Below, piece after piece: positions 26,783 to 58,977 of a stretch of 64,000 nt of DNA. The first letter of the stretch is position 1. Every line of letters starts with the position of its first letter. The notes beneath the pieces are model-generated. The model saw nothing but the letters and a program-made list of their open reading frames with translations, made no database searches and was not told the DNA's origin. This DNA comes from an uncultured Candidatus Saccharibacteria bacterium (GTDB lineage: Bacteria; Patescibacteriota; Saccharimonadia; Saccharimonadales; JAGQNJ01), in NCBI GenBank assembly GCA_964491925.1, contig CAZBGZ010000003.1:86234-150233 (forward strand), given 5' to 3'. Both the position numbers and the translations under genes were made by a program.

Positions 26783-27304
26783 ATGATGGTTGATTTACAA
26801 GGAGAAAACAAGAAAATCAGTGCTAGAGCAAAATCTACACTAAAGGGGAAGACCATATCGGGTGGGGCCGTTTTTACCGAATACGATGTTGATGGCGCGA
26901 AATACGTAAGAATAATTTTAGACATAAAGGGTGACACTAGCGTGCTACAACCAGGAACCCATGCAGTACATATACATGAAAAAGCCAGTTGTGATTGTGA
27001 CGATTTCAAGTGTGCGGGCGGGCATTTTGATCCAGGACCAAACGGTAACAGCGACCCAGATGCAAACCATGGTTATCACGCTGGTGATCTGCCCAGTATT
27101 ACAACCGATGAAAAAGGTGAAGGGCACTTAGAATGCATCACCTCACGCTTGACCCTCAGTGATGGGCCTGTTTCAATCTTGCAGCCTGAAGAGGGAACGT
27201 CAATAATGGTCCATGCCAATCCAGATCCATATACTCCAGGTGACTCTGGCTCTGGTCACAGTGGCGGCCCCCGCCTAGCCTGTGGCACAATCGAAAAAGT
27301 TTGA
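26783..27304 (+). CDS. sodC: Cu/Zn superoxide dismutase, apparently without a signal peptide
   Basis: HAVHIHEKASC, GGHFDPG, HAGDLPSI and GGPRLACGTIE match SodC metal-ligand and disulfide motifs. The N-terminus MMVDLQGENKKISARAK is not hydrophobic. Confidence 0.85.
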   Translation: MMVDLQGENKKISARAKSTLKGKTISGGAVFTEYDVDGAKYVRIILDIKGDTSVLQPGTHAVHIHEKASCDCDDFKCAGGHFDPGPNGNSDPDANHGYHAGDLPSITTDEKGEGHLECITSRLTLSDGPVSILQPEEGTSIMVHANPDPYTPGDSGSGHSGGPRLACGTIEKV

Positions 27305-31169: not shown

Positions 31170-31568
31170 TTATCCGCGGACTTCGTTACCTCGCACTGTC
31201 AGTGCATATATTACCAACACATTAATGACCACGACTGCAATAGCCCAAATTGGGTAGGTGTTTGCGTAAGCCAAGTTAGCTACAATGCTAAGCATAGCAA
31301 TAATTACCCCAACGACCCGCGCCCATACCGCACCGTTCATTACTGCGAAACCAGCGGCGAATACTAACACTCCGATAATGATATGTATCCAGCCCCAGGT
31401 AGTGAAGTTAAACGCAATCAGACTATTTTGTGTAACTAATAGCCATTTGTCATTCAGTAAAGCCGTTAACCCGGCGATACCTTGAACGACGCCCATCAGG
31501 ATCATCATAAATCCTGCGAAAACAATCCAGCCTGTCCAGCCAGATGGTTGATTATTATTTGCTGCCAT
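31170..31568 (-). CDS. Four-TM membrane protein (DUF7144-like)
   Basis: 132-aa ORF with four TM helices and W/G-rich loops. The family assignment is from memory only. Confidence 0.5.
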   Translation of the reverse strand: MAANNNQPSGWTGWIVFAGFMMILMGVVQGIAGLTALLNDKWLLVTQNSLIAFNFTTWGWIHIIIGVLVFAAGFAVMNGAVWARVVGVIIAMLSIVANLAYANTYPIWAIAVVVINVLVIYALTVRGNEVRG

Positions 31569-33234: not shown

Positions 33235-33897
33235 CTAGTCATCGTCCTCTGTTTCTATCTCGTTTTCAATTTCAGGTTCTTTTTCGGGCGTTTTTTGCTT
33301 CTGTTCCGCGGTATTTGTCGGTGTTTCAGTTGTCGTAGTTTGTTCCCGGGTGCTAGATTGATTTTCGGGCCCCGGTTTTTTTATTACCCTAGCTGGTCGT
33401 AGAACTACGAAATCGTCAAAAACAATTTCGTCTGAGTGGTCAATTTTCATGGCCAGTCGGTAGACGCCTGGCTTTTTAAATAAGGTAGGCCAGTCTTTGA
33501 AATCGTATTTTCTCGTACTATTCGGTTTGATAGCGATGTGCCTGGGTTGTTTATGGCAGTTGCTATTTTTATCCTTAGCTGTGGCGTGAGTTTGTTCCCA
33601 TCTATTATCGTCCCAGCGATAAACGTTCAAAGGTTCTTCCGGACAATTATTGGTGACGTATATTGTGTTTGGAAACTGGTTTTGGATTGAAAAGGATACG
33701 GCTTCACCCGGTTTATAACGTGTTTTGCTGACTTTTAGAACGATGCTGCCAGGGGGAAATTGGTCTTCATCGTGCTCCCTATAGACATGTAAGCCAAGTT
33801 TCACGAAGCCCGTAATCAGTAATATGTAGAAAATTACCCACAATATGTGGAATCTAATCGTCATATGTTTTGTGCGTAATTCTCGGTTTAATCTCAT
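33235..33897 (-). CDS. Membrane-anchored extracytoplasmic protein with acidic/Thr-rich tail, hypothetical
   Basis: Start placed at the ATG at 33897 (MRLNREL..), forming an ATGA overlap with the upstream stop. The listed 276-aa ORF overlaps the upstream gene by 170 nt. One TM helix, then a Cys-containing domain. Confidence 0.55.
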   Translation of the reverse strand: MRLNRELRTKHMTIRFHILWVIFYILLITGFVKLGLHVYREHDEDQFPPGSIVLKVSKTRYKPGEAVSFSIQNQFPNTIYVTNNCPEEPLNVYRWDDNRWEQTHATAKDKNSNCHKQPRHIAIKPNSTRKYDFKDWPTLFKKPGVYRLAMKIDHSDEIVFDDFVVLRPARVIKKPGPENQSSTREQTTTTETPTNTAEQKQKTPEKEPEIENEIETEDDD

Positions 33898-34628
33898 ACT
33901 GTTTTTGCCCTCCATAGTCTCGCCAAGCTGGCATACATTACTATGAAAGCAGTCAGAATCCACAGCCACCGCAACAAGCCGCTGGAAAGATCGGTCCCCA
34001 AAAACAGAGAGTGCACGAATACAAAAAGCATCGCAAGATAACTTAGTAAATGTGTAATTTTCCATAAACCGGGCTTTTTTTCAATCCAGAGCAGGGAAGT
34101 CAGGACGATTGCCATTGACAGATACAGCGATAAAACACCTAGGGCTACATATAGCGAACCTACCGATACCCCCAATAAGTTAATTTGTTTATAGGTTGAT
34201 GCAAACGGTACTAAAAGTGACATCAGACCAAACGGTACAAAGTTGTCAAAGTATAATGAGCCAACATGCAAGAGCACGGAGACAGCAAATGCAATGCCCA
34301 AGGCTCTATGCGAGGCCCAGGCCGTTATTGGCTCAAAAAAGCTGAATGTATGGCCAGTAAGCAACCCAACGCCGGAAAGCATTAAAAGAACAAATGTAAC
34401 CGCTGCTAACAAACCCGATATGCGGGTCAAGTACCAAGGCCACGATACGCGCACTCTTTCCATTAGGCCGTGTGCAACGGATGATTTAGGGGTACGATCA
34501 ACTGTGACACTGGAAGACGACGTCGACTGAGCTGAAGTATTAGCTGGCAGGCTTCCCAATACAGTAATTCCACCTAGGGTTGATGCCAGAATTACGAGAG
34601 CAAAAAATAATAATCTACGCATGTTCAC
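33894..34628 (-). CDS. Ferric-reductase-like (FRD/YedZ-type) transmembrane heme-binding component
   Basis: Six TM helices with spaced His residues (HRALGIAFAVSVLLHV ; THLLSYLAMLFVFVHS), as in di-heme ferric reductase domains. Operon context with an FNR-like protein. Confidence 0.5.
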   Translation of the reverse strand: MNMRRLLFFALVILASTLGGITVLGSLPANTSAQSTSSSSVTVDRTPKSSVAHGLMERVRVSWPWYLTRISGLLAAVTFVLLMLSGVGLLTGHTFSFFEPITAWASHRALGIAFAVSVLLHVGSLYFDNFVPFGLMSLLVPFASTYKQINLLGVSVGSLYVALGVLSLYLSMAIVLTSLLWIEKKPGLWKITHLLSYLAMLFVFVHSLFLGTDLSSGLLRWLWILTAFIVMYASLARLWRAKTV

Positions 34629-35583
34629 TTTCGTTTATTTTAGCACTAGTCTTAATAGTTCTGCTTATGCAAAAACCTTCACCCATCAACTTCACCCCAT
34701 TTGTTCCAGCTTTGTCTTGAAGTATTACGCCCTTAACTATACCTTTACGCAGTATTTTTTTAGCAAAATTTTCACCGCCAATTAAGACGCACGACGCCAT
34801 CACATCAGCAGTAGTAGCATCAGATGCTGCCACGCTACACATCTGGAACTTTGATTTTGCGAGGTTTCCTGTGCGGGGGTCTATTAAATGATATTGTGTT
34901 TTGCCATTTTTACTCCTGGAAAGACCAGAGGTAGCAACCGCGAATTTATCATCTACACCAATGTACTGCCCAACAATTTTACTTGGGTTCTCAAGAGATT
35001 GTATATTTATCTTTTGTGTTTTAGTTTTGGTATTTTTGGCTATTATGTCTCCCCCAATGGATAGACAATATTCAGACATGCCAATAGAATCAAGTGTGTC
35101 TGCTAGTTTGTCTGCTAGGTAGCCTTTCCCTATGCCCCCAAAATCGAGCGCTGTGTTATTGGGTATCTTTGCCCAATCTTTTCCTATGTCTAGTTTTGAA
35201 TAACTTTCCAAAATGCGACTACTATAGTTTATGGCCGATAATCGTGTTTCTCTTCCCCCGAAAGATGTTACATACCCTATCCTATTTAGCGACGGAAGGA
35301 TAAAAGGATTGAATAATCCACCACTTGCAAGGTATAAGTCTTTTGATTTTTTGAGTAGTGCATGAAATTCTTTCGACACTTTAACTTCATTGCCCGCCTT
35401 GGTGTTGAATATTGTAAGCTCACTGGATGTTAAAAAACGGCTAAATTGGTTTTGAAAATTTTCTACTTTTTGCCATAAACTGATGAATAATTTGTCTGCA
35501 CTGGACTCATTGGGGGCGGTTATTTGCAGTTCTAGTTTTGTCCCTAGGGCACGAGCAGACTGCATGTAAATAACGTTTTTCAT
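34615..35583 (-). CDS. apbE: FAD:protein FMN transferase (ApbE family)
   Basis: ALGTKLELQI (MGT-type start), GGIGKGYLADK, and ATSGLSRS....HLIDPRTG are ApbE motifs. Confidence 0.75.
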   Translation of the reverse strand: MKNVIYMQSARALGTKLELQITAPNESSADKLFISLWQKVENFQNQFSRFLTSSELTIFNTKAGNEVKVSKEFHALLKKSKDLYLASGGLFNPFILPSLNRIGYVTSFGGRETRLSAINYSSRILESYSKLDIGKDWAKIPNNTALDFGGIGKGYLADKLADTLDSIGMSEYCLSIGGDIIAKNTKTKTQKINIQSLENPSKIVGQYIGVDDKFAVATSGLSRSKNGKTQYHLIDPRTGNLAKSKFQMCSVAASDATTADVMASCVLIGGENFAKKILRKGIVKGVILQDKAGTNGVKLMGEGFCISRTIKTSAKINESEHA

Positions 35584-36662
35584 GAAACCGTGCTTGTGGG
35601 CGTGCTCTTAGGCGTTGTGGTGGGCGATGGTGTTACGGTTGGGGCCGGCGTTGGGGAAGCAATATTACTACTGCTAGATGATTGACTGCCGCCCGAAGGA
35701 GTGGTTTGTACAACGTCTTTTTGGTTGATATTAGTATTAACCTGAGGCCTTATTGAATTTAAGCTGTTATCTTCAGGTATAACATTGGTTTTTTTTGAAG
35801 TTTCGGTATTTTTAGATTCTAGTTTTGGGATGGTTCTGTATAGGTCCAAAGCTACGATAAAGAAACTGCCGATAATGAACGATAGGCCAGTAAGTGCGTA
35901 TATATTAAATGGCCAGCTTTTTAGTTTTCCAGTTTGGCGATGAGAACCTTGGCTAAACGCCTCGCTCATAATTGCGTTTTTTGGGACCCCTTGTTTTTTT
36001 AGCAAACCAAAAACCGCTTTCATATAAGCTGGTGGACCACAGACAAAATAAGTTTGTACGTTGGTTTTTAGCCCCAACTGCGAAATATTTTCAGTGTTTA
36101 ACTGGCCGGCTATAACTTTGCTGCCTTTTAGCTTTTCTGAATCCCCAGCACCAATAATGTATGTAACTCTTAGGTTGGGATTTTTGCTTTGAAGTTCTCT
36201 TATGGATTCTAAAAAGGGGATATCATTCTGATCTCTGCAGCTGAAAACTAGGTGAATCTTGTTGGGTAGGTCCAGGGCAGTAGCATAATGCATCATGCTC
36301 ATGAAGGGTGCTATGCCAATACCTCCAGCGAGAAAAACGACATCTTCGTGTAATTGTGGGTCAAAAACGAAGCCACCGAACGGCCCTCTCAGGACAACTA
36401 AGTCTTCAATTTTTAGTCTCTCGATCGCGGACGTAAAATGGCCTTTTACACGCATACTGAACTGAATCAACTGTTGATTTGAGGGTGAAGTGGTTATTGA
36501 GAAACATCGCATAACGGTTGGGCGCAGTCTATCGCGTAATCCAATTGCGGCATATTGCCCAGGTTGAAATAGAAGAGGCTCATTGCCCTCGAGACATTCT
36601 AGTGTCAACTCTCGTACTGTTGCAGTCAGCTTTTTATTTGATAAAACTTTGTAATGGTACAC
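35580..36662 (-). CDS. FNR-like FAD/NAD(P)-binding oxidoreductase with a C-terminal TM helix and Ser/Thr/Pro-rich tail
   Basis: RCFSITTSP (RxYS-type FAD motif), LAGGIGIAPF (NAD(P) motif), and CGPPAYM. TM helix IYALTGLSFIIGSFFIVAL, then the tail SSSSSNIASPTPAPTVTPSPTTTP. Confidence 0.7.
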   Translation of the reverse strand: MYHYKVLSNKKLTATVRELTLECLEGNEPLLFQPGQYAAIGLRDRLRPTVMRCFSITTSPSNQQLIQFSMRVKGHFTSAIERLKIEDLVVLRGPFGGFVFDPQLHEDVVFLAGGIGIAPFMSMMHYATALDLPNKIHLVFSCRDQNDIPFLESIRELQSKNPNLRVTYIIGAGDSEKLKGSKVIAGQLNTENISQLGLKTNVQTYFVCGPPAYMKAVFGLLKKQGVPKNAIMSEAFSQGSHRQTGKLKSWPFNIYALTGLSFIIGSFFIVALDLYRTIPKLESKNTETSKKTNVIPEDNSLNSIRPQVNTNINQKDVVQTTPSGGSQSSSSSNIASPTPAPTVTPSPTTTPKSTPTSTVS

Positions 36663-53181: not shown

Positions 53182-53264
53182 ACAAAATTACAATAGTCAC
53201 TAATTGGTAAATATTGCTAAAATAGCTTAAGGTTTTTAGTGTATTTTTGGAGGGTTTTAAACTA

Positions 53265-56231
53265 TTGAAAAATTATTTTAGCTTGAATAATAGCCTGCTG
53301 TTAATAGCTTTTATTGTATTGCCTATTATGCTAATGCTAATAAAACCATTAGTGGCGCATGCTGATATCTCTACTGGCTTAATCGCTCATTATTCTTTTG
53401 ATGATATTAGTGGTGCTACCGCTCCAGATAGTTCGGGTAACGGTTACGACGGCACGATAACCGGTAGTGCGACAACTACCGCAGGAGCAGTGGGAAATGC
53501 TTTAACTTTTGATGGTAGTGACGACACTGTCGACATACCGCATCAGCTACTTTCTAGCCAAACTCCAGATTTTAGTTATAGTTTTTACTTTAAAGCCGAT
53601 GCAGGAGGTGACGACAGTCAATACCTTTTGGCGCAGGCTAGTAGCGGAACTAATAATAATGATTGTTTTAGTGTGGCATATGACAACACTGCTGAGTCGT
53701 TAAAGGTGTTAACTACAAATGCAGGTCAGAACGCGCGAATTACAAGTGATATTGACGCAAGTGTTTGGACGCATATTGCAGTAACGCATTCGTACGCAAC
53801 AAATGAGTCAAAACTATATATAAACGGTGTCGCCCAGACAGGCTATGCGATGTCTTGTTCACAGGCGTTGGCCGCTCAATTTTTACTAGGTCGTTCACCT
53901 TATTCTGGCTACAATCAACAGCTTCAAGGCTCTCTTGATGAAGTCAGGATCTATAACCGAATCCTCGATGATGCCGATATATATGATTTGGCAACTGAAG
54001 GTGACACCAATAGTGTGTCGATAACTACACCTACAGAAGGAACTGTTGTTCGTGGTTCTACAACACTAGAAGCTAGTGTATCTGGTTCACCATCGATTAG
54101 CACCTTGCAGTACTATGCTAATGGCGAAGCTCTAGGATCACCACTTACAGATGCACCATATACTTACGAATGGAATACATCAGGGATAGATCAGGGCGAC
54201 TATTCTGTTACTGCGGTTGGGACAGATACAAATGGCGATTTGGTTCCTTCGTTGGCACTAAATGTAGTTGTCGATAACGATCCAGTAATAAAGATGACTA
54301 ATACTAAGAGTATTCAACAAACTTCAGCCGAGATTGTTTGGGTGACGGATGAAAAAACTACAGGCCAAATAGAATATGGTTTAACAAGTTCTTATGGCTC
54401 TGAGACGGACTTAGTTGGTGGCCTTAGCTATTATCATAATCATCAGCTATCAGATTTGTTACCTAATACCACGTATCATTATCAGATTATTTCACAAGAT
54501 AATTTCGGGAATGAAGTAACGTCTGGTGATCTAACTTTTTCTACAATAACAGGCGAAACCGGCAATCAGTGGCATGTGACAACTGACGGGACTTCTGGAG
54601 GAGATGGTAGTTTAGAAAATCCCTGGGATCTTGATACTGCTTTAGCTCAGCCCGACAGCGTTCAGCCGGGTGATACAATTTGGGTCCATGAGGGTACCTA
54701 TGGCGGTGTTTTTACGAGCACTTTAACTGGAACAGCCAGCGCTCCAATTATACTCAGAAACTATAACAACGAACGTGTAATTATTGATGGCGAGAGTTCA
54801 AACAGTAGTGTTATTACAGTGTATGGTGCTTACGCCTGGTATTGGGGGTTTGAAGTTATCAATTCTGATACTACTAGGACGATAGCCCAGGCGGGCTCTA
54901 ACCCTGTTACTTTGCCACGTGGTCTTGGCTACTATATCCTGGGTCCCGGCACCAGATTTATTAATAATATCGTTCATGACACAGCTGAAGGATTTGGTTT
55001 TTGGACTCCAGCAACGAACGCAGAATTATACGGGAATATTGTGTATTATAACGGCTGGGAAGGTCCAGACAGGGGTCACGGCCATGGAATTTATGTACAA
55101 AACAATACAGGACTAAAAAATATAACCAATAACATTGTCTTCAAAAACTTTGGCTATGGACTACACGCCTATACGGAGGGCGGGACACTGCATAATATTT
55201 TGACAGATAGTAACGTTTTTTTTAATAACGGTGCATTATCGAACACGGGTTACACACAAAATATGCTTCATGGTGGGTATACGCTAGCCAATAATCCGAT
55301 GATTTTTAATAATAGAGTATACTCGCCTATAGCGTTGGGTGGCGGACTTGGTATTGGTTATGTAGCCGGTTGTAATACCCCGACAATTGAAGGAAATTAT
55401 ATTGTTTCTCATGCTGCATTTGAATTAAGTTCTGATTGTAGCCATAACACAGTTAATGGAAATACTTTTTATGGTGCATATCCTGGCTCGGCTACGACAA
55501 ATTATCCTGATAACGAATACTTTAACGTAGAGGCGCCCACGGATAATAATGTATATGTAGCTCAGAATTATTATGAGACAACTAAATCCTATGTAACTAT
55601 ATATAACTGGGAAAATTTGTCTGAGGTAGACATTGATGCGTCTAGTGTACTAGACGAAAATGATACCTATGCCATTTACGACACGGAGAATTTTTTTGGC
55701 GACCCGATAGCGACCGGCACCTTTAATGGCGCGACAATATCGGTTCCAATGACGACAACAGGATTAACAGAAACTGTTGGCGAAGTTCCCGTTGCGCCGA
55801 CTCATAGTAGTGAAGAATTTGGATCTTTTGTTTTGGTAAAAACTGGGCATTATACGCCTCCTCCTGTTGAAGATGACGATGCCCCAGTTGAAGATGACGA
55901 TGCTCCAGTTGATAATGTAGACAATGGCAGTAGTGATAATAATAGTTCTTCGAATGATTCATCTACCTATGATGCTGACGAATCTTCACAAGCATCATTA
56001 GCAAGTATTATATTCTCGACTACTAATTCGGATTCACAGAAATCTGAATATAGTGAAAATGCATCAAAACAAGGCAGCTCTCCCTCAGTAGGAGTAGAGG
56101 AAAATCAAAGTAATTCGGATCCAATCTCAGACAAAAATAATGGTTTTTGGGGTCTTCAAAAAGTCCTGGGTTTTAGTTTTATTTTGATAATAACTGGAAG
56201 TATTTTGTGGAGGATATTTGTTTATGAATAG
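53265..56231 (+). CDS. Giant surface protein: LamG + Ig-like + FN3-like + right-handed beta-helix, with a C-terminal TM anchor
   Basis: TTG at 53265, 10 nt after GGAGGG (the listed start is 53247). LamG (LTFDGSDD...GSLDEVRIYNRIL). Ig-like (YTYEWNTSGIDQGDYSVTAVGTD). FN3/PAP-N-like (AEIVWVTDEKTTGQIEYG...NTTYHYQI). Beta-helix (NPWDL..PGDTIWVHEGTY; repeated N/G-rich turns). Acidic repeats and a terminal TM helix. Confidence 0.7.
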   Translation: MKNYFSLNNSLLLIAFIVLPIMLMLIKPLVAHADISTGLIAHYSFDDISGATAPDSSGNGYDGTITGSATTTAGAVGNALTFDGSDDTVDIPHQLLSSQTPDFSYSFYFKADAGGDDSQYLLAQASSGTNNNDCFSVAYDNTAESLKVLTTNAGQNARITSDIDASVWTHIAVTHSYATNESKLYINGVAQTGYAMSCSQALAAQFLLGRSPYSGYNQQLQGSLDEVRIYNRILDDADIYDLATEGDTNSVSITTPTEGTVVRGSTTLEASVSGSPSISTLQYYANGEALGSPLTDAPYTYEWNTSGIDQGDYSVTAVGTDTNGDLVPSLALNVVVDNDPVIKMTNTKSIQQTSAEIVWVTDEKTTGQIEYGLTSSYGSETDLVGGLSYYHNHQLSDLLPNTTYHYQIISQDNFGNEVTSGDLTFSTITGETGNQWHVTTDGTSGGDGSLENPWDLDTALAQPDSVQPGDTIWVHEGTYGGVFTSTLTGTASAPIILRNYNNERVIIDGESSNSSVITVYGAYAWYWGFEVINSDTTRTIAQAGSNPVTLPRGLGYYILGPGTRFINNIVHDTAEGFGFWTPATNAELYGNIVYYNGWEGPDRGHGHGIYVQNNTGLKNITNNIVFKNFGYGLHAYTEGGTLHNILTDSNVFFNNGALSNTGYTQNMLHGGYTLANNPMIFNNRVYSPIALGGGLGIGYVAGCNTPTIEGNYIVSHAAFELSSDCSHNTVNGNTFYGAYPGSATTNYPDNEYFNVEAPTDNNVYVAQNYYETTKSYVTIYNWENLSEVDIDASSVLDENDTYAIYDTENFFGDPIATGTFNGATISVPMTTTGLTETVGEVPVAPTHSSEEFGSFVLVKTGHYTPPPVEDDDAPVEDDDAPVDNVDNGSSDNNSSSNDSSTYDADESSQASLASIIFSTTNSDSQKSEYSENASKQGSSPSVGVEENQSNSDPISDKNNGFWGLQKVLGFSFILIITGSILWRIFVYE
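55863..55913 (+). repeat. 21-nt tandem repeat encoding PVEDDDA x2 (plus a partial third unit)
   Basis: cctgttgaagatgacgatgcc / ccagttgaagatgacgatgct / ccagttgat... Confidence 0.8.
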
Positions 56232-56307: not shown

Positions 56308-58977
56308 ATGGTAGAAACGGATAATTTTACATCTGATTGGTCACAATTGCTCGACGACATGCCAAATGAGCCGGGGGCTGTAATGTCGCCACAGTTACAA
56401 TCAGCAACCATCGGGTCAGTTAGTACGGGGGATTTACCTATTAGCTCCAGTTTTGCCTCCTCTAACAAAAAGAGCACTCCTAGTTTTGGTGGCTCTTCTA
56501 GTAACTCGAGCTCATCTAACAACAATAATAAAAAACGTTTTCCATGGTGGATGTTATTGGTTTTATTTTTGCTTTTCGGTAGCGCTGCAAGTGCTGCAAC
56601 AGGTTACAACCCCATCTATCGAGCATTAGAAGTTGTAGGTATAGAGGGCAATGACGGCAAAGACGGAGCTGATGGCTTGGATGGTATTAATGGGCAAGAC
56701 GGTAAAGTCGTAAAACAAACCACTATTATTGGGTCTAGTTCTTCAGCATCTGGATCTGGCAGCGGAGCAGATGGCGCGGACGGAGCAAGTGGTCAGGACG
56801 GCGCTGATGGAACAAATGGTGCAGACGGAGCAGATGGGTCCAACGCTTGTATTTCTGGACTTTGTGTTTCAAGGCAGGCCAGCACACCAGGAACTCAGGA
56901 AACGGGGAACATAAATATTGACGGCACAGTACTAGCCAGCCAAGTAGGGGTAAACGCATCACCAACCAATACGCTATCCGTTGGTGGAACAGCCAATATT
57001 GGTGGGCATTCAGCAACCGGTGGCGGCGCAACAGTCAACGGTATAACATCGGCTAGCGATGCCTTATCTGGCGCAACAGCTCACAACACTATTGCCGCTG
57101 TTTATGAGACAGTTACAACGTTGGATGAAGCTTCAACCATGTATGAGGGCCTTGGTGGTGTACTTAAACTCAACCCAAGCGCAGCACCGGTATACGGTCA
57201 GGCTACTGGAAATAATGGCGGGGTTGAAATTGTATCTGGTAATACCCAAAACTTTGGAGGCAATATTCAGGGCATGAACGGTAACTTTATACATGCTGGT
57301 ACTGGTACGGTAACTTCGGCAACTGCACTACAAGGTCCGTTTTTAAATACTTCGACTGGCAATGTGACGAATGGCTACGGCATACGTTCAATTGGTATCA
57401 ATTATAACCTCAGCGATACCTCTTGTGTAACTAACGAAACTTGTATGATATCAAATTACACTGGTGTAGATTCTACTTTTGCAATTAATCTAGGCACAAT
57501 AACAAACTACAAAGGAATCCAAATACAAACCCCTACAAATGCTGGCACCATTACCAACAACTGGGGACTTTATATTCAAGACCAATCTTCTGTCGGCTCA
57601 ACCACAAGCTACAACTTGTATTCAGCAGGCTCAACTGCCAAAAACTACTTTGCTGGATTAGTGGGGATAGGTGCAGATTCAACACCTGATGCTTCGTTGG
57701 AAGTTGTTAATGATGGTTCTGGCGACTCATTCTTAGTGGCGGACACCAATGATAGTGATGCATCACCGTTTGTGATCGATTCAACTGGCAAAGTTGGCAT
57801 TCGAACAGCCAGCCCAGGCACAAATAATTCTGTGTTAGAGGTAACGGGCAGCGCATATATTAGTGATTACGTCTATACATCTATGCTGAGAAGTGCTACC
57901 GAATCTAATTCAAAAATAGATTTATATGACTCAAGCGCCGGGATAGCATTTATAGCACAGAACAATACAAAGGATTTCCGTTGGGCAATTAACAGTGGCT
58001 CTGATTTGATGACACTAGATGGAGCTACCGGCAAGCTTGGTATAGGTACTGCTACTCCAGGGGCAATGCTAGAAGCGGTTGCCACATCGACGACTCCTGC
58101 TGTCTTGGGAACAGGTAGCGCTGGTACGGCCGGTGCAATTGGGGTAAAAGGCACAGCCTACTCCTATGGTGTTTACGGACAAGGATCAATAGTGGGTGTT
58201 TATGGTACTGGCGGTGGCGCATCCGGCTATGGCGTACATGGTCAATCAGGAGCAGCTGAAGGAACGGGGGTGTACGCTCAGGCTGGGAACAGGGGTAGTG
58301 AGGTAGGAATAAGCGCATTTGGCGGTAAATTTACTGGTTTGTTTGAGAACGGCTATGCTGATGAAACAGGCGGTGCAGTAGTCAAGATTCTTTCCAGTTA
58401 CTCAGGTAAAGTAAACCCCGCCCTACTTGTGCAGCAAGACGGAACTGCCGGTGTAACTATGCGCCTTACCGATACTACAGGTACTTGTGATTTCAACCCA
58501 GATTCTGGTTCTCTCGGAACCTCTTGCTCATCTGACGCTCGACTAAAAGCCAACATTACTGATGCAGCCAGTGTGCTTAGTGAAATAAATGGTCTTAAGA
58601 TACGAGATTATACAGTTCTAGCTAGTGGAAGTGAGACAACCGGTCTGATCGCTCAAGAAGTTCTTGAAACAAATCCAGAGATGGTGCATATGGGGGAGGA
58701 TGGCTACTACAAAGTAGATAGCTACAACCCCTGGAAAGTTCTTAAGGGGGTACAAGAATTAAGCTCCAACTTAGATGATTTACAGACTTCATTTACGACC
58801 GCACTCGAGCAGACGAATGGTAACCTCGATGCGACCAACCAATCACTCGCGGATCTAGGATTACGCGTAGACGATCTTTCGACCACACTGCAAACATATG
58901 CCGACCAGTTAGCAGCCCATGATCAACGAATCCAAGCTCTAGAAGCTAAGGTTCAGTCGCTAGAGCAAGCTAACTAG
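56308..58977 (+). CDS. N-terminally membrane-anchored collagen-like / tail-fibre-like protein with a C-terminal S74 intramolecular chaperone domain
   Basis: TM helix FPWWMLLVLFLLFGSAASAA. G-x-y runs (GNDGKDGADGLDGINGQDGK; GADGADGASGQDGADGTNGADGADG). Long Gly/Thr/Ser-rich fibre region. SSDARLKANI...GLIAQEV..TNPEMV...YKVDY matches the Peptidase_S74 (endosialidase chaperone) signature. Terminal coiled coil. Confidence 0.75.
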   Translation: MVETDNFTSDWSQLLDDMPNEPGAVMSPQLQSATIGSVSTGDLPISSSFASSNKKSTPSFGGSSSNSSSSNNNNKKRFPWWMLLVLFLLFGSAASAATGYNPIYRALEVVGIEGNDGKDGADGLDGINGQDGKVVKQTTIIGSSSSASGSGSGADGADGASGQDGADGTNGADGADGSNACISGLCVSRQASTPGTQETGNINIDGTVLASQVGVNASPTNTLSVGGTANIGGHSATGGGATVNGITSASDALSGATAHNTIAAVYETVTTLDEASTMYEGLGGVLKLNPSAAPVYGQATGNNGGVEIVSGNTQNFGGNIQGMNGNFIHAGTGTVTSATALQGPFLNTSTGNVTNGYGIRSIGINYNLSDTSCVTNETCMISNYTGVDSTFAINLGTITNYKGIQIQTPTNAGTITNNWGLYIQDQSSVGSTTSYNLYSAGSTAKNYFAGLVGIGADSTPDASLEVVNDGSGDSFLVADTNDSDASPFVIDSTGKVGIRTASPGTNNSVLEVTGSAYISDYVYTSMLRSATESNSKIDLYDSSAGIAFIAQNNTKDFRWAINSGSDLMTLDGATGKLGIGTATPGAMLEAVATSTTPAVLGTGSAGTAGAIGVKGTAYSYGVYGQGSIVGVYGTGGGASGYGVHGQSGAAEGTGVYAQAGNRGSEVGISAFGGKFTGLFENGYADETGGAVVKILSSYSGKVNPALLVQQDGTAGVTMRLTDTTGTCDFNPDSGSLGTSCSSDARLKANITDAASVLSEINGLKIRDYTVLASGSETTGLIAQEVLETNPEMVHMGEDGYYKVDSYNPWKVLKGVQELSSNLDDLQTSFTTALEQTNGNLDATNQSLADLGLRVDDLSTTLQTYADQLAAHDQRIQALEAKVQSLEQAN

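Follow-up and report, generated by a model that had tools for sequence, protein, structure and literature searches.

A 64,000-nt stretch of DNA from an uncultured Candidatus Saccharibacteria bacterium (contig CAZBGZ010000003.1, positions 86,234–150,233; hereafter the window, to which all coordinates refer) carries on its minus strand a module of four genes (33235–36662) for an FNR-like NAD(P)H dehydrogenase with its own transmembrane (TM) helix and a disordered tail (gene 1), an ApbE-family FAD:protein FMN transferase (gene 2), a ferric reductase domain (FRD) cytochrome b (gene 3) and a membrane protein with an Ig-like domain (gene 4). We propose, with a probability of about 0.55, that these products assemble in the membrane and carry electrons outward from cytosolic NAD(P)H, and that an FMN is covalently attached, most likely to the end of the gene 1 tail.

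The same four genes, in the same order, were found in approximately 70 of 78 species-level genomes, wherever the contig was long enough; the FRD family is present at 79 loci, ApbE at 75, and the dehydrogenase and gene 4 at 72 each, with the genes for ApbE and the FRD protein adjacent in 75 of the 79. All the named homologs are from Candidatus Saccharibacteria or from unclassified metagenome-assembled genomes of the candidate phyla radiation (CPR). None of the genes flanking the module in the window is conserved beyond the two closest relatives, and no fifth conserved family surrounds it in about 75 loci, the residual recurrent 'families' being antisense shadow open reading frames (ORFs). We consider an order conserved amid unrelated flanks to be far beyond chance; an earlier note on this DNA, made from its sequence alone, would have abandoned its interpretation of the module as a split electron conduit if relatives had lacked this synteny.

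The four ORFs leave no intergenic space and overlap by 4, 14 and 4 nt, and the earlier note described them as translationally coupled. These coordinates hold, although the 14 nt hinges on an ambiguous start: a GTG at 34628 yields a 244-aa gene 3 product, whereas an ATG two codons later (34622), used in the public gene call, would yield 242 aa and an 8-nt overlap with apbE. For genes 1, 2 and 4 (the latter P0121) the public calls are identical to the window ORFs. Gene 1 starts at a GTG immediately after an in-frame TGA, and gene 4 at an ATG that corresponds to M57 in the longest ORF, with GGAGG upstream, for a product of 220 aa. Between the four genes, no terminator or promoter signal exceeded the shuffled expectation.

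The gene 1 product best matches NAD_binding_1 (PF00175, E = 7e-15) and FAD_binding_6 (PF00970, E = 1e-7), and also NAD_binding_6 (PF08030, 27.6 bits against a cut-off of 22.2). Its closest solved sequence relatives are NqrF, MMOR and the dehydrogenase domain of SpNOX (E about 1e-15; 6e-15 for SpNOX), and the motifs RCFS, GxFT (GHFT in the window), GGIGIAPF, CGPP and EAF are kept in 70 homologs. These two domains, the family motifs and the C-terminal aromatic residue of EAF identify it, by sequence, as an FNR-family dehydrogenase. After EAF come a conserved juxtamembrane stretch (...QTGK..SWPxNxY), the TM helix and an 88-aa tail rich in Ser, Thr and Pro, an arrangement previously noticed as unusual and open to the objection that it might be a peculiarity of this protein. 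It is not: the helix can be aligned across all 70 homologs, and every one of them has a tail, of 67–128 aa and 50–80% S/T/P/A/G/N/Q. Net charge around the helix is +1.9 before and +0.4 after, a bias that agrees with an N-in/C-out topology for the dehydrogenase and for the small tail proteins described below, so that the tail is predicted to lie outside the cell. At one locus a second, tail-less FNR-like paralog follows gene 4 directly (L035 3871–4587), and at another a 434-aa FNR-like gene is found about 5 kb downstream of the module (L001 12470–12723, minus strand).

Gene 3 had been described as a six-TM protein of the ferric reductase type with paired His residues, likely di-heme, for which a match to Ferric_reduct (PF01794) was to be expected. 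Such a match appeared in roughly half of the listed homologs at 50–77% identity, as well as in the fused relatives discussed below; the window protein itself gave none at E ≤ 0.1. The predicted architecture nevertheless agrees with that description: the AlphaFold2 model (pLDDT 85.8) has six long helices; in it, a signal/anchor helix at the N-terminus is followed by a Ser-rich disordered linker, then by an amphipathic helix and the five TM helices. Its top Foldseek matches in the PDB are SpNOX (8qta), STEAP4 (6hcy) and STEAP1/2, with probabilities of 0.99–0.57 and E-values of only about 0.2–1, and when the FRD alignment was compared as a profile with the sequences of solved structures, only a marginal STEAP4 match came up (E = 0.16). 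The four His of the two pairs (H107, H121, H193 and H206) are invariant in alignments of 90 and 79 sequences, which removes the concern that the putative heme ligands might not be conserved, and their spacing is i+14 and i+13; in gp91phox, the corresponding residues are 101/115 and 209/222. Positions 107–108 are His-Arg in the window and His-Arg or His-Lys in 79 of 79 homologs, which is the NOX pattern and not the Arg-Arg of MsrQ and STEAP. Because of these four invariant His, the NOX/FRE spacing and the His-Arg pair, we assign gene 3 to the NOX-type di-heme ferric reductase domains, and it would bind two b hemes. The heme ligands of SpNOX are H69/H82 and H129/H142, and in MsrQ, Arg77 replaces the inner-heme His (PMC11031084; PMC12525009). 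We considered placing gene 3 in the MsrQ/YedZ-STEAP branch and rejected it, as the inner-heme His is present and the Arg replacement is not found.

A profile search of the full library with the heme protein retrieved 2220 relatives, and among the closest are single chains of 447–494 aa with the order FAD_binding_6, NAD_binding_1, Ferric_reduct (P0226, P0232, P0235, P0241; L085–L089). In them, the C-terminal helix of the dehydrogenase is the first helix of the heme domain. Such fusions are Rosetta-stone evidence that the products of genes 1 and 3 would form one enzyme, and they favor the earlier proposal of a NOX/FRE-type conduit split into dehydrogenase and heme subunits. They also account for the odd C-terminal helix of gene 1 if the family is an inverted-order NOX that is split in the window. 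The order dehydrogenase, helix, FRD of the fused chains is the opposite of that in every described NOX. Four fused relatives have no tail, and neither apbE nor gene 4 occurs on their contigs (2.4–9.3 kb).

Gene 2 matches PF02424 (E = 2e-42, 145.8 bits), and its TSG, Y-H-LIDP and T-A-D motifs align with TSG, S-H-IIDP and T-A-D of ApbE from V. cholerae and are kept in 72 homologs. Neither a signal peptide nor a lipobox was seen, in line with what had been noted, and there is no room for one in the window ORF or in 70 homologs: even in the longest possible ORFs, the first ApbE fold motif is preceded by 8–22 residues (median 11) with a maximum hydropathy of 0.8, compared to 2.7 for the FRD signal/anchor helix by the same measure. 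We thus regard the gene 2 product as a competent, cytosolic ApbE. A motif scan agreed with the earlier note in finding no [S/T]GA[S/T], nor the longer canonical D-x-x-[ST]-G-A-[ST], in the four window products, where the only approximations are TGHT in a loop of the FRD protein and STVS-COOH at the end of the tail. Similarly, no Pfam match to FMN_bind, DUF2271 or DUF3570 was obtained in the operon products or in 90 gene 4 homologs. The suggested coupling of the module to protein flavinylation stands as far as the association with apbE and the intact catalytic residues of its product suggest it, and does not extend to a recognized substrate domain or canonical motif in the window products. At one locus (L039 3795–5636), the cytochrome gene and gene 4 come directly after the gene for a dehydrogenase with a tail motif of class a (see below), and apbE is missing from its usual place; the apbE gene may be elsewhere in that genome or may have been lost.

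Sequence variation along the tail is not uniform, since in 70 Saccharibacteria tails the tip is conserved whereas the remainder is not. The most frequent ending (class a, 30 tails) is C-T-T-[ST]-x-S-G-[VIN]-x-T-C-x, mostly with SGVT (e.g., CTTSQSGVTTC), followed by C-x-T-T-P-S-G-R-C-x (class b, 15 tails), and in both the motif is flanked by two Cys. Another 12 tails end in [ST]-x-x-S-COOH, including TSTVS in the window and PRTRVS, PVTKVS and PRSTVS in others; 11 end in T-T-[VA]-S plus 2–4 residues, and two fall outside all classes. Only the tail from L074 ends in a canonical SGAS-COOH. Compared to [S/T]-G-A-[S/T], the T-x-x-S-COOH tips agree at positions −3 and 0, with position −1 usually Val or Ala. 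The third base of the Gly, Val, Thr and Arg codons of the motif varies freely without any change in the residues encoded, which points to selection on the peptide and not on the overlapping start codon or ribosome binding site of apbE. Junctions between gene 1 and apbE range from a 40-nt overlap to a 28-nt gap (70 loci). We therefore discarded the idea that the 'SG' of the tail reflects a Shine-Dalgarno or overlap constraint for apbE, in view of the synonymous variation and of the persistence of the motif across junction types. A translational fusion of the FNR-like protein and ApbE, which would place ApbE outside on the tail, was also rejected: apbE is a separate ORF in 70 of 70 loci, with no conserved frameshift geometry.

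Looking up genomic contexts and scanning metagenomes with the sister group brought in about 35 more loci, for some 110 overall, in which more distant ApbE-FRD operons form two groups, T and U. The order in group T is a dehydrogenase, a small TM-anchored acidic protein, a signal-less ApbE and an FRD protein with N-terminal TSP3 repeats; the dehydrogenase matches FAD_binding_8 and has a TM helix at about residues 252–270 and a Pro/Thr/Val-rich tail ending in ...TTRVS or ...PRTRVS. Certain members of this group (P0288, P0291, P0300) show the classical order, FRD then dehydrogenase. In L092 and L093, the FRD protein carries the dehydrogenase as a C-terminal fusion and the tail is found on separate single-pass proteins (...KPRTKVS, ...KPKTKVS, ...QPRTSVS), and in L102 the tail of the dehydrogenase is devoid of the motif and a separate protein ends in ...EPVTAVS. 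Group U has no dehydrogenase nearby and, at every locus with enough upstream sequence, the order is a tail protein, a dockerin-like TM protein, a signal-less ApbE and the FRD protein; here the tail protein is a single-pass, S/T-rich product of 103–159 aa with endings such as KTTTKAS, KTTKKS, TTKVS, KTKTS, TTRTS, TTSTS and TTATS. Thus, a TM-tethered disordered tail ending in T-x-x-S-COOH was always present in the approximately 25 ApbE-FRD operons of groups T and U, either on the dehydrogenase or on a separate protein (19 separate single-pass proteins across both groups); as background, T..S endings occur in 7 of 735 other ORFs with a length of 100 aa or more.

Some of these operons contain two tail proteins, each ending in T-x-x-S-COOH (L093 1816–2208 and 2210–2392; L116 2819–3040 and 3070–3486; L127 3319–3672 and 8370–8876), which suggests that the number of tethers can be multiplied. 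In L095–L128 the place of gene 4 is taken by a TM-anchored acidic protein with two Asp-rich dockerin/EF-hand-like repeats, recognized by eye, and no Pfam match (e.g., L097 3640–4026, L108 3638–4033), and the cytochromes of the distant groups carry N-terminal TSP3_bac calcium-binding repeats; the acidic repeat protein and the TSP3_bac cytochrome are a possible calcium-dependent docking pair.

In the mechanism that we propose, NAD(P)H would reduce the FAD of the gene 1 subunit at the cytosolic face of the membrane, where the subunit would be held by its own C-terminal helix, packed on gene 3 as the missing first helix. Electrons would pass from FAD to the inner b heme (H107/H193) and the outer b heme (H121/H206) of gene 3, and would exit at the outer face through a covalently bound FMN, supplied by the ApbE of the operon, as the last carrier. 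The FMN would most probably be attached to the Ser/Thr of the [ST]-x-[VA]-[ST] motif with which the gene 1 tail ends and, because ApbE is predicted to be cytosolic, attachment would precede export of the tail. The Ig-like subunit would dock to, or cap, the complex at the outer face, and the final acceptor could be O2, Fe(III) or an oxidant derived from the host or the environment. The NAD(P)H-binding domain, together with all the characterized FRD systems, leads us to predict that the electrons move outward.

Among the candidate substrates of ApbE, we rank the tail tip first, at about even odds, because the signal-less enzyme is constantly accompanied by the di-heme cytochrome and by a tail ending in T-x-x-S-COOH; its candidacy is strengthened by the fused relatives, which lack both the tail and a nearby ApbE. 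Several points weigh against it and against the proposal as a whole. The most serious is a paradox of compartments, as ApbE and its FAD should be inside the cell while the tail is predicted to be outside, and we know of no precedent for flavinylation before export. The window tip, S-T-V-S, differs from [ST]-G-A-[ST] at both middle positions, class b tips (TTPSGRC) match the flavinylation motif poorly, and loose motifs arise easily in low-complexity tails rich in Ser and Thr. Additionally, the contigs of the fused relatives are short, so that their apbE could sit elsewhere in the genome; gene 3 of the window has no direct Pfam match and the E-values of its Foldseek matches are weak (0.2); and the ApbE substrate is possibly encoded elsewhere in the genome.

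Two adjacent genes for large surface proteins in the window do contain matches to D-x-x-S-G-A-T: one (53247–56231, plus strand; 994 aa, with LamG_3 and Big_7) has FDDISGATAPDSSG, just upstream of its Laminin_G_3 match, and the other (56308–58977, plus strand; 889 aa, with a Peptidase_S74 chaperone domain and collagen-like and coiled-coil regions) has SDALSGAT. The first match presumably represents the usual opening of LamG-type domains, and we judged both matches to be probably coincidental.

The paradox has two possible solutions. In one, the unstructured tail is flavinylated before being threaded out, which would explain the absence of a folded FMN_bind domain and of a FAD exporter. Data from other systems bear on how much deviation a motif tolerates: with K. 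pneumoniae ApbE, about 50% flavinylation is left after either a change of Gly to Ala or one of Ala to Val, the Asp is not needed, and a tag of 7 residues performs best when placed at a terminus (PMC12052999), and FMN_red proteins are known to be flavinylated on an unstructured C-terminal extension (PMC11334425). We tentatively extend this idea, as a conjecture less likely to be right than wrong, to an unrecognized class of ApbE substrates in the CPR, disordered membrane-tethered tails of 70–130 residues to whose last residues FMN is added in the cytoplasm before the tail is threaded out. If so, the result would be a flavin-tipped 'fishing line' that reaches from the outer heme across the cell wall and hands electrons to remote acceptors, which may be on the host cell; neither a FAD exporter nor a folded FMN-binding domain would then be required.

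In the other possible solution, the tail motif docks an Ig-like or dockerin-like partner, or serves as an anchor, and ApbE acts on a cytosolic site. The conduit would then be the same, with FMN relaying electrons from FAD to heme from a site in the cytoplasmic loop of the FRD protein (T91-G-x-T94) or at T244 in the juxtamembrane linker of gene 1, and the tail left for docking, anchoring or glycosylation. Having no compartment problem, this solution agrees with an ApbE devoid of signal peptide; moreover, the loop reads [ST]-G-x-[ST] in 73 of 79 homologs (TGHT in the window) and is the only place where canonical TGAT or TGAS recurs (9 of 79), T244 is S/T in 91% of homologs, flavinylation is known in the polytopic membrane proteins NqrB and RnfD, and MsrQ and STEAP carry a flavin at the cytosolic face (cf. 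diflavin reductases and the FMN-containing MsrQ). However, six genomes that keep ApbE have lost the S/T at the fourth position of the loop, TG(x)T also occurs in fused relatives without ApbE at the locus, and the motif is missing from the cytochromes of groups T and U, which are still paired with ApbE; on these three counts we demoted the loop as a candidate ApbE site. Furthermore, both inner-heme His are present, so the pocket that holds flavin in MsrQ and STEAP would be filled by heme, and the constant pairing of ApbE with a T-x-x-S-COOH tail is left unexplained. We therefore consider a cytoplasmic site unlikely, and retain the tail tip as the preferred candidate.

Gene 4 was examined for an alternative flavin carrier. 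Its product has one N-terminal TM helix and a beta-sandwich (AlphaFold2, pLDDT >90 in the domain), as anticipated for a membrane-anchored extracytoplasmic protein; Big_14 (PF20251) is found in 70 of 90 homologs, while the window copy itself has no match. The fold matches only generic accessory FnIII/Ig-like domains, such as the FnIII-like domain of GH3 enzymes (E about 1e-5), and C85 and C114, which are invariant, probably form a disulfide. We rejected the possibility that it is a cryptic FMN_bind/DUF2271 substrate or a cupredoxin on the basis of the Big_14 fold, of the exclusively accessory beta-sandwich matches and of the location of its sole well-conserved S/T within a strand. Some homologs have an extra C-terminal beta-sandwich of about 80 residues (P0152; L029 3842–4723, L057 5696–6598). 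The JGI label 'plastocyanin' is attached to P0152 (292 aa, extended) and to P0188 (204 aa, of ordinary size), and one family member weakly matches Cupredoxin_1, with no obvious copper ligands seen.

The electrons could instead be meant for an extracytoplasmic reductase encoded elsewhere, MsrP-like or other, with ApbE modifying that partner and with gene 4 and the tail as adaptors. Among prokaryotic FRD proteins, MsrQ is indeed the only one whose role is established, and it is partnered by a separate FNR-family reductase; some sources label homologs of gene 3 'methionine sulfoxide reductase heme-binding subunit', and the short extracellular loops of the gene 3 model would expose the outer heme to a docking partner. 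Nevertheless, across about 75 loci the surroundings of the module contain no conserved gene for an iron transporter, an MsrP-like enzyme or any other reductase, no partner with FMN_bind, DUF2271 or DUF3570 was seen, and the cytochrome has the four-His pattern of NOX and not the single heme plus FMN of MsrQ. A role as supplier of the MsrQ type is, in our opinion, quite improbable.

Lastly, ApbE might merely handle flavins, as a FAD pyrophosphatase or FMN supplier, alongside a plain split NOX or ferric reductase without covalent flavin. The ApbE homolog Ftp of T. pallidum hydrolyses FAD, the four window proteins have no canonical motif or FMN_bind domain, and the fused dehydrogenase-FRD relatives appear functional without a neighboring ApbE. 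Against this, the residues for transfer are conserved in ApbE, and its coupling to the cytochrome in more than 100 loci from three divergent groups, always with a tail protein, is hard to reconcile with general flavin metabolism. We hold this to be the least probable of the alternatives, with little chance of being correct, and maintain covalent flavinylation at the tail tip as our working proposal.

The features of the module are collected in Table 1. Elsewhere in the window, a Cu/Zn superoxide dismutase gene (PF00080, Sod_Cu, matched on the identical public contig; 26783–27304, plus strand) lies about 6 kb from the module; its proximity would be suggestive if the module produced extracellular superoxide, and the gene is beyond the 5-kb flanks fetched for the other genomes. 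A gene for a DUF7144 membrane protein (31170–31568, minus strand) is also near the module, and another directly follows a fused dehydrogenase-FRD gene on an unrelated contig (L088 1823–2227), a recurrence that may be due to chance.

Table 1. Coordinates of the genes, domains and motifs of the four-gene module in the window.
Feature	Coordinates	Strand	Size or basis
Gene 1, FNR-like membrane-anchored NAD(P)H dehydrogenase subunit	35580..36662	-	360 aa; PF00175/PF00970
Gene 1, cytosolic FAD/NAD(P)H-binding domain, aa 1–237	35952..36662	-	Extent of Pfam and NCBIfam matches
Gene 1, C-terminal TM helix, aa 254–272, IYALTGLSFIIGSFFIVAL	35847..35903	-	Hydropathy 2.17; SWPxNxY just before
Gene 1, disordered Ser/Thr/Pro-rich tail, 88 aa, predicted extracytoplasmic	35583..35846	-	Composition, charge bias
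Gene 1, candidate flavinylation site at the very C-terminus, TSTVS-COOH (class [ST]-x-[VA]-S-COOH)	35583..35597	-	Motif comparison
Gene 2, ApbE-family FAD:protein FMN transferase, predicted cytosolic	34615..35583	-	322 aa; PF02424
Gene 3, FRD cytochrome b subunit, predicted NOX-type bis-heme	33894..34628	-	244 aa; homologs carry PF01794
Gene 3, secondary candidate for flavinylation: cytoplasmic loop TGHTFSFFEPIT, equivalent to the B-loop and preceding the inner-heme His	34323..34358	-	Motif
Gene 3, four predicted heme-ligand His codons: H107 (34308–34310), H121 (34266–34268), H193 (34050–34052), H206 (34011–34013)	34011..34310	-	Invariant
Gene 4, membrane protein with one TM helix, an Ig-like (Big_14) extracytoplasmic domain and an acidic low-complexity tail	33235..33897	-	220 aa; PF20251 in homologs

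Hardly any respiratory machinery and next to no extracytosolic flavinylation are attributed to Saccharibacteria and the rest of the CPR, and our literature searches found no paper that connects ApbE, ferric reductases or NOX to Saccharibacteria or Patescibacteria. If our proposal is correct, these cells would possess a self-contained conduit from NAD(P)H to the outside with which to re-oxidize NAD(P)H, reduce iron or oxygen at the surface, or act on their hosts, and surveys that require signal peptides or FMN_bind domains would have missed a whole class of flavinylated systems. Likewise, a natural tip motif would widen the sequence rules for flavin-tagging, and the inverted-order and split relatives would be natural variants in which to study the docking of the dehydrogenase and heme domains of NOX.

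The closest described kind are the 'MsrQ-like' flavinylation-associated clusters (Meheust et al. 2021, PMC8238504; Huang et al. 2024, PMC11334425), which, like the window module, have a PF01794 di-heme protein by apbE, a PF00175 dehydrogenase as cytosolic entry and a predicted export of electrons from NAD(P)H. Under the operational definition of Meheust et al. (2021), a PF01794 gene in an apbE gene cluster, the module belongs with them, although it has neither the recognized substrate domain nor the extracytosolic ApbE of these clusters. They are mainly actinobacterial, with a NAD-binding domain fused to the MsrQ-like C-terminus and an FMN_bind substrate, whereas in the window the dehydrogenase is separate and membrane-anchored, ApbE is signal-less, no substrate domain is found, and a Big_14 protein and a motif-tipped tail are added. 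Those clusters were collected through ApbE with a signal peptide or through FMN_bind, and the CPR was 'strikingly underrepresented' (PMC8238504).

Flavinylation itself has partial parallels. FMN_red extensions (PMC11334425) and the synthetic 7-residue Flavin-tag (PMC12052999) also place a short motif ending in Ser/Thr on a flexible C-terminal extension, without a folded FMN_bind domain; theirs is the canonical [ST]GA[ST] by a flavin-binding pocket, whereas that of the window family is [ST]-x-[VA]-[ST], usually as T-x-x-S-COOH, on a tether of 70–130 residues after a TM helix, and its flavinylation is predicted. The ApbE that matures fumarate reductase in K. pneumoniae (PMC12052999) is likewise cytoplasmic and without signal peptide, but its substrate is a soluble cytoplasmic enzyme with FMN_bind, a domain that is absent from the window operon. 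Flavin-based extracellular electron transfer in Listeria (Ndh2, EetA/B, FmnB, PplA; PMC8238504, PMC9973259) resembles the module in taking electrons from NADH to a surface-tethered, ApbE-flavinylated carrier in a Gram-positive-type cell, and differs in using a quinone pool, an extracytoplasmic lipoprotein ApbE (FmnB), a FAD exporter and a folded FMN_bind domain, none of them present in the window module.

As for the conduit, SpNOX (PDB 8qq7/8qta) and NOX/FRE proteins share with the module a four-His bis-heme FRD and an FNR-family dehydrogenase. NOX is one chain with the TM domain followed by the dehydrogenase, whereas the window has two chains whose genes are parted by apbE, instead of the single FRD-then-dehydrogenase polypeptide of NOX proper, and the fused relatives are inverted; NOX also lacks the ApbE, the tail and the Ig-like subunit, all three of which the window has. 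In E. coli MsrQ-Fre (Juillan-Binard et al. 2017, summarized in PMC11031084 and PMC12525009), a separate FRD-family cytochrome and FNR-family reductase similarly pass NAD(P)H electrons across the membrane. There, MsrQ binds a single heme plus an FMN that is not covalently attached, Arg77 occupies the position of the inner-heme His, the gene for the soluble reductase Fre lies elsewhere, and the acceptor is MsrP, in contrast to the four His, the membrane-anchored and operon-linked reductase, the ApbE and the lack of MsrP nearby in the window. Together, these comparisons indicate that the module would work like NOX, as exemplified by SpNOX, or like MsrQ-Fre but belongs to neither, and that its potentially new elements are an ApbE substrate at the tip of a tail and its flavinylation before export.

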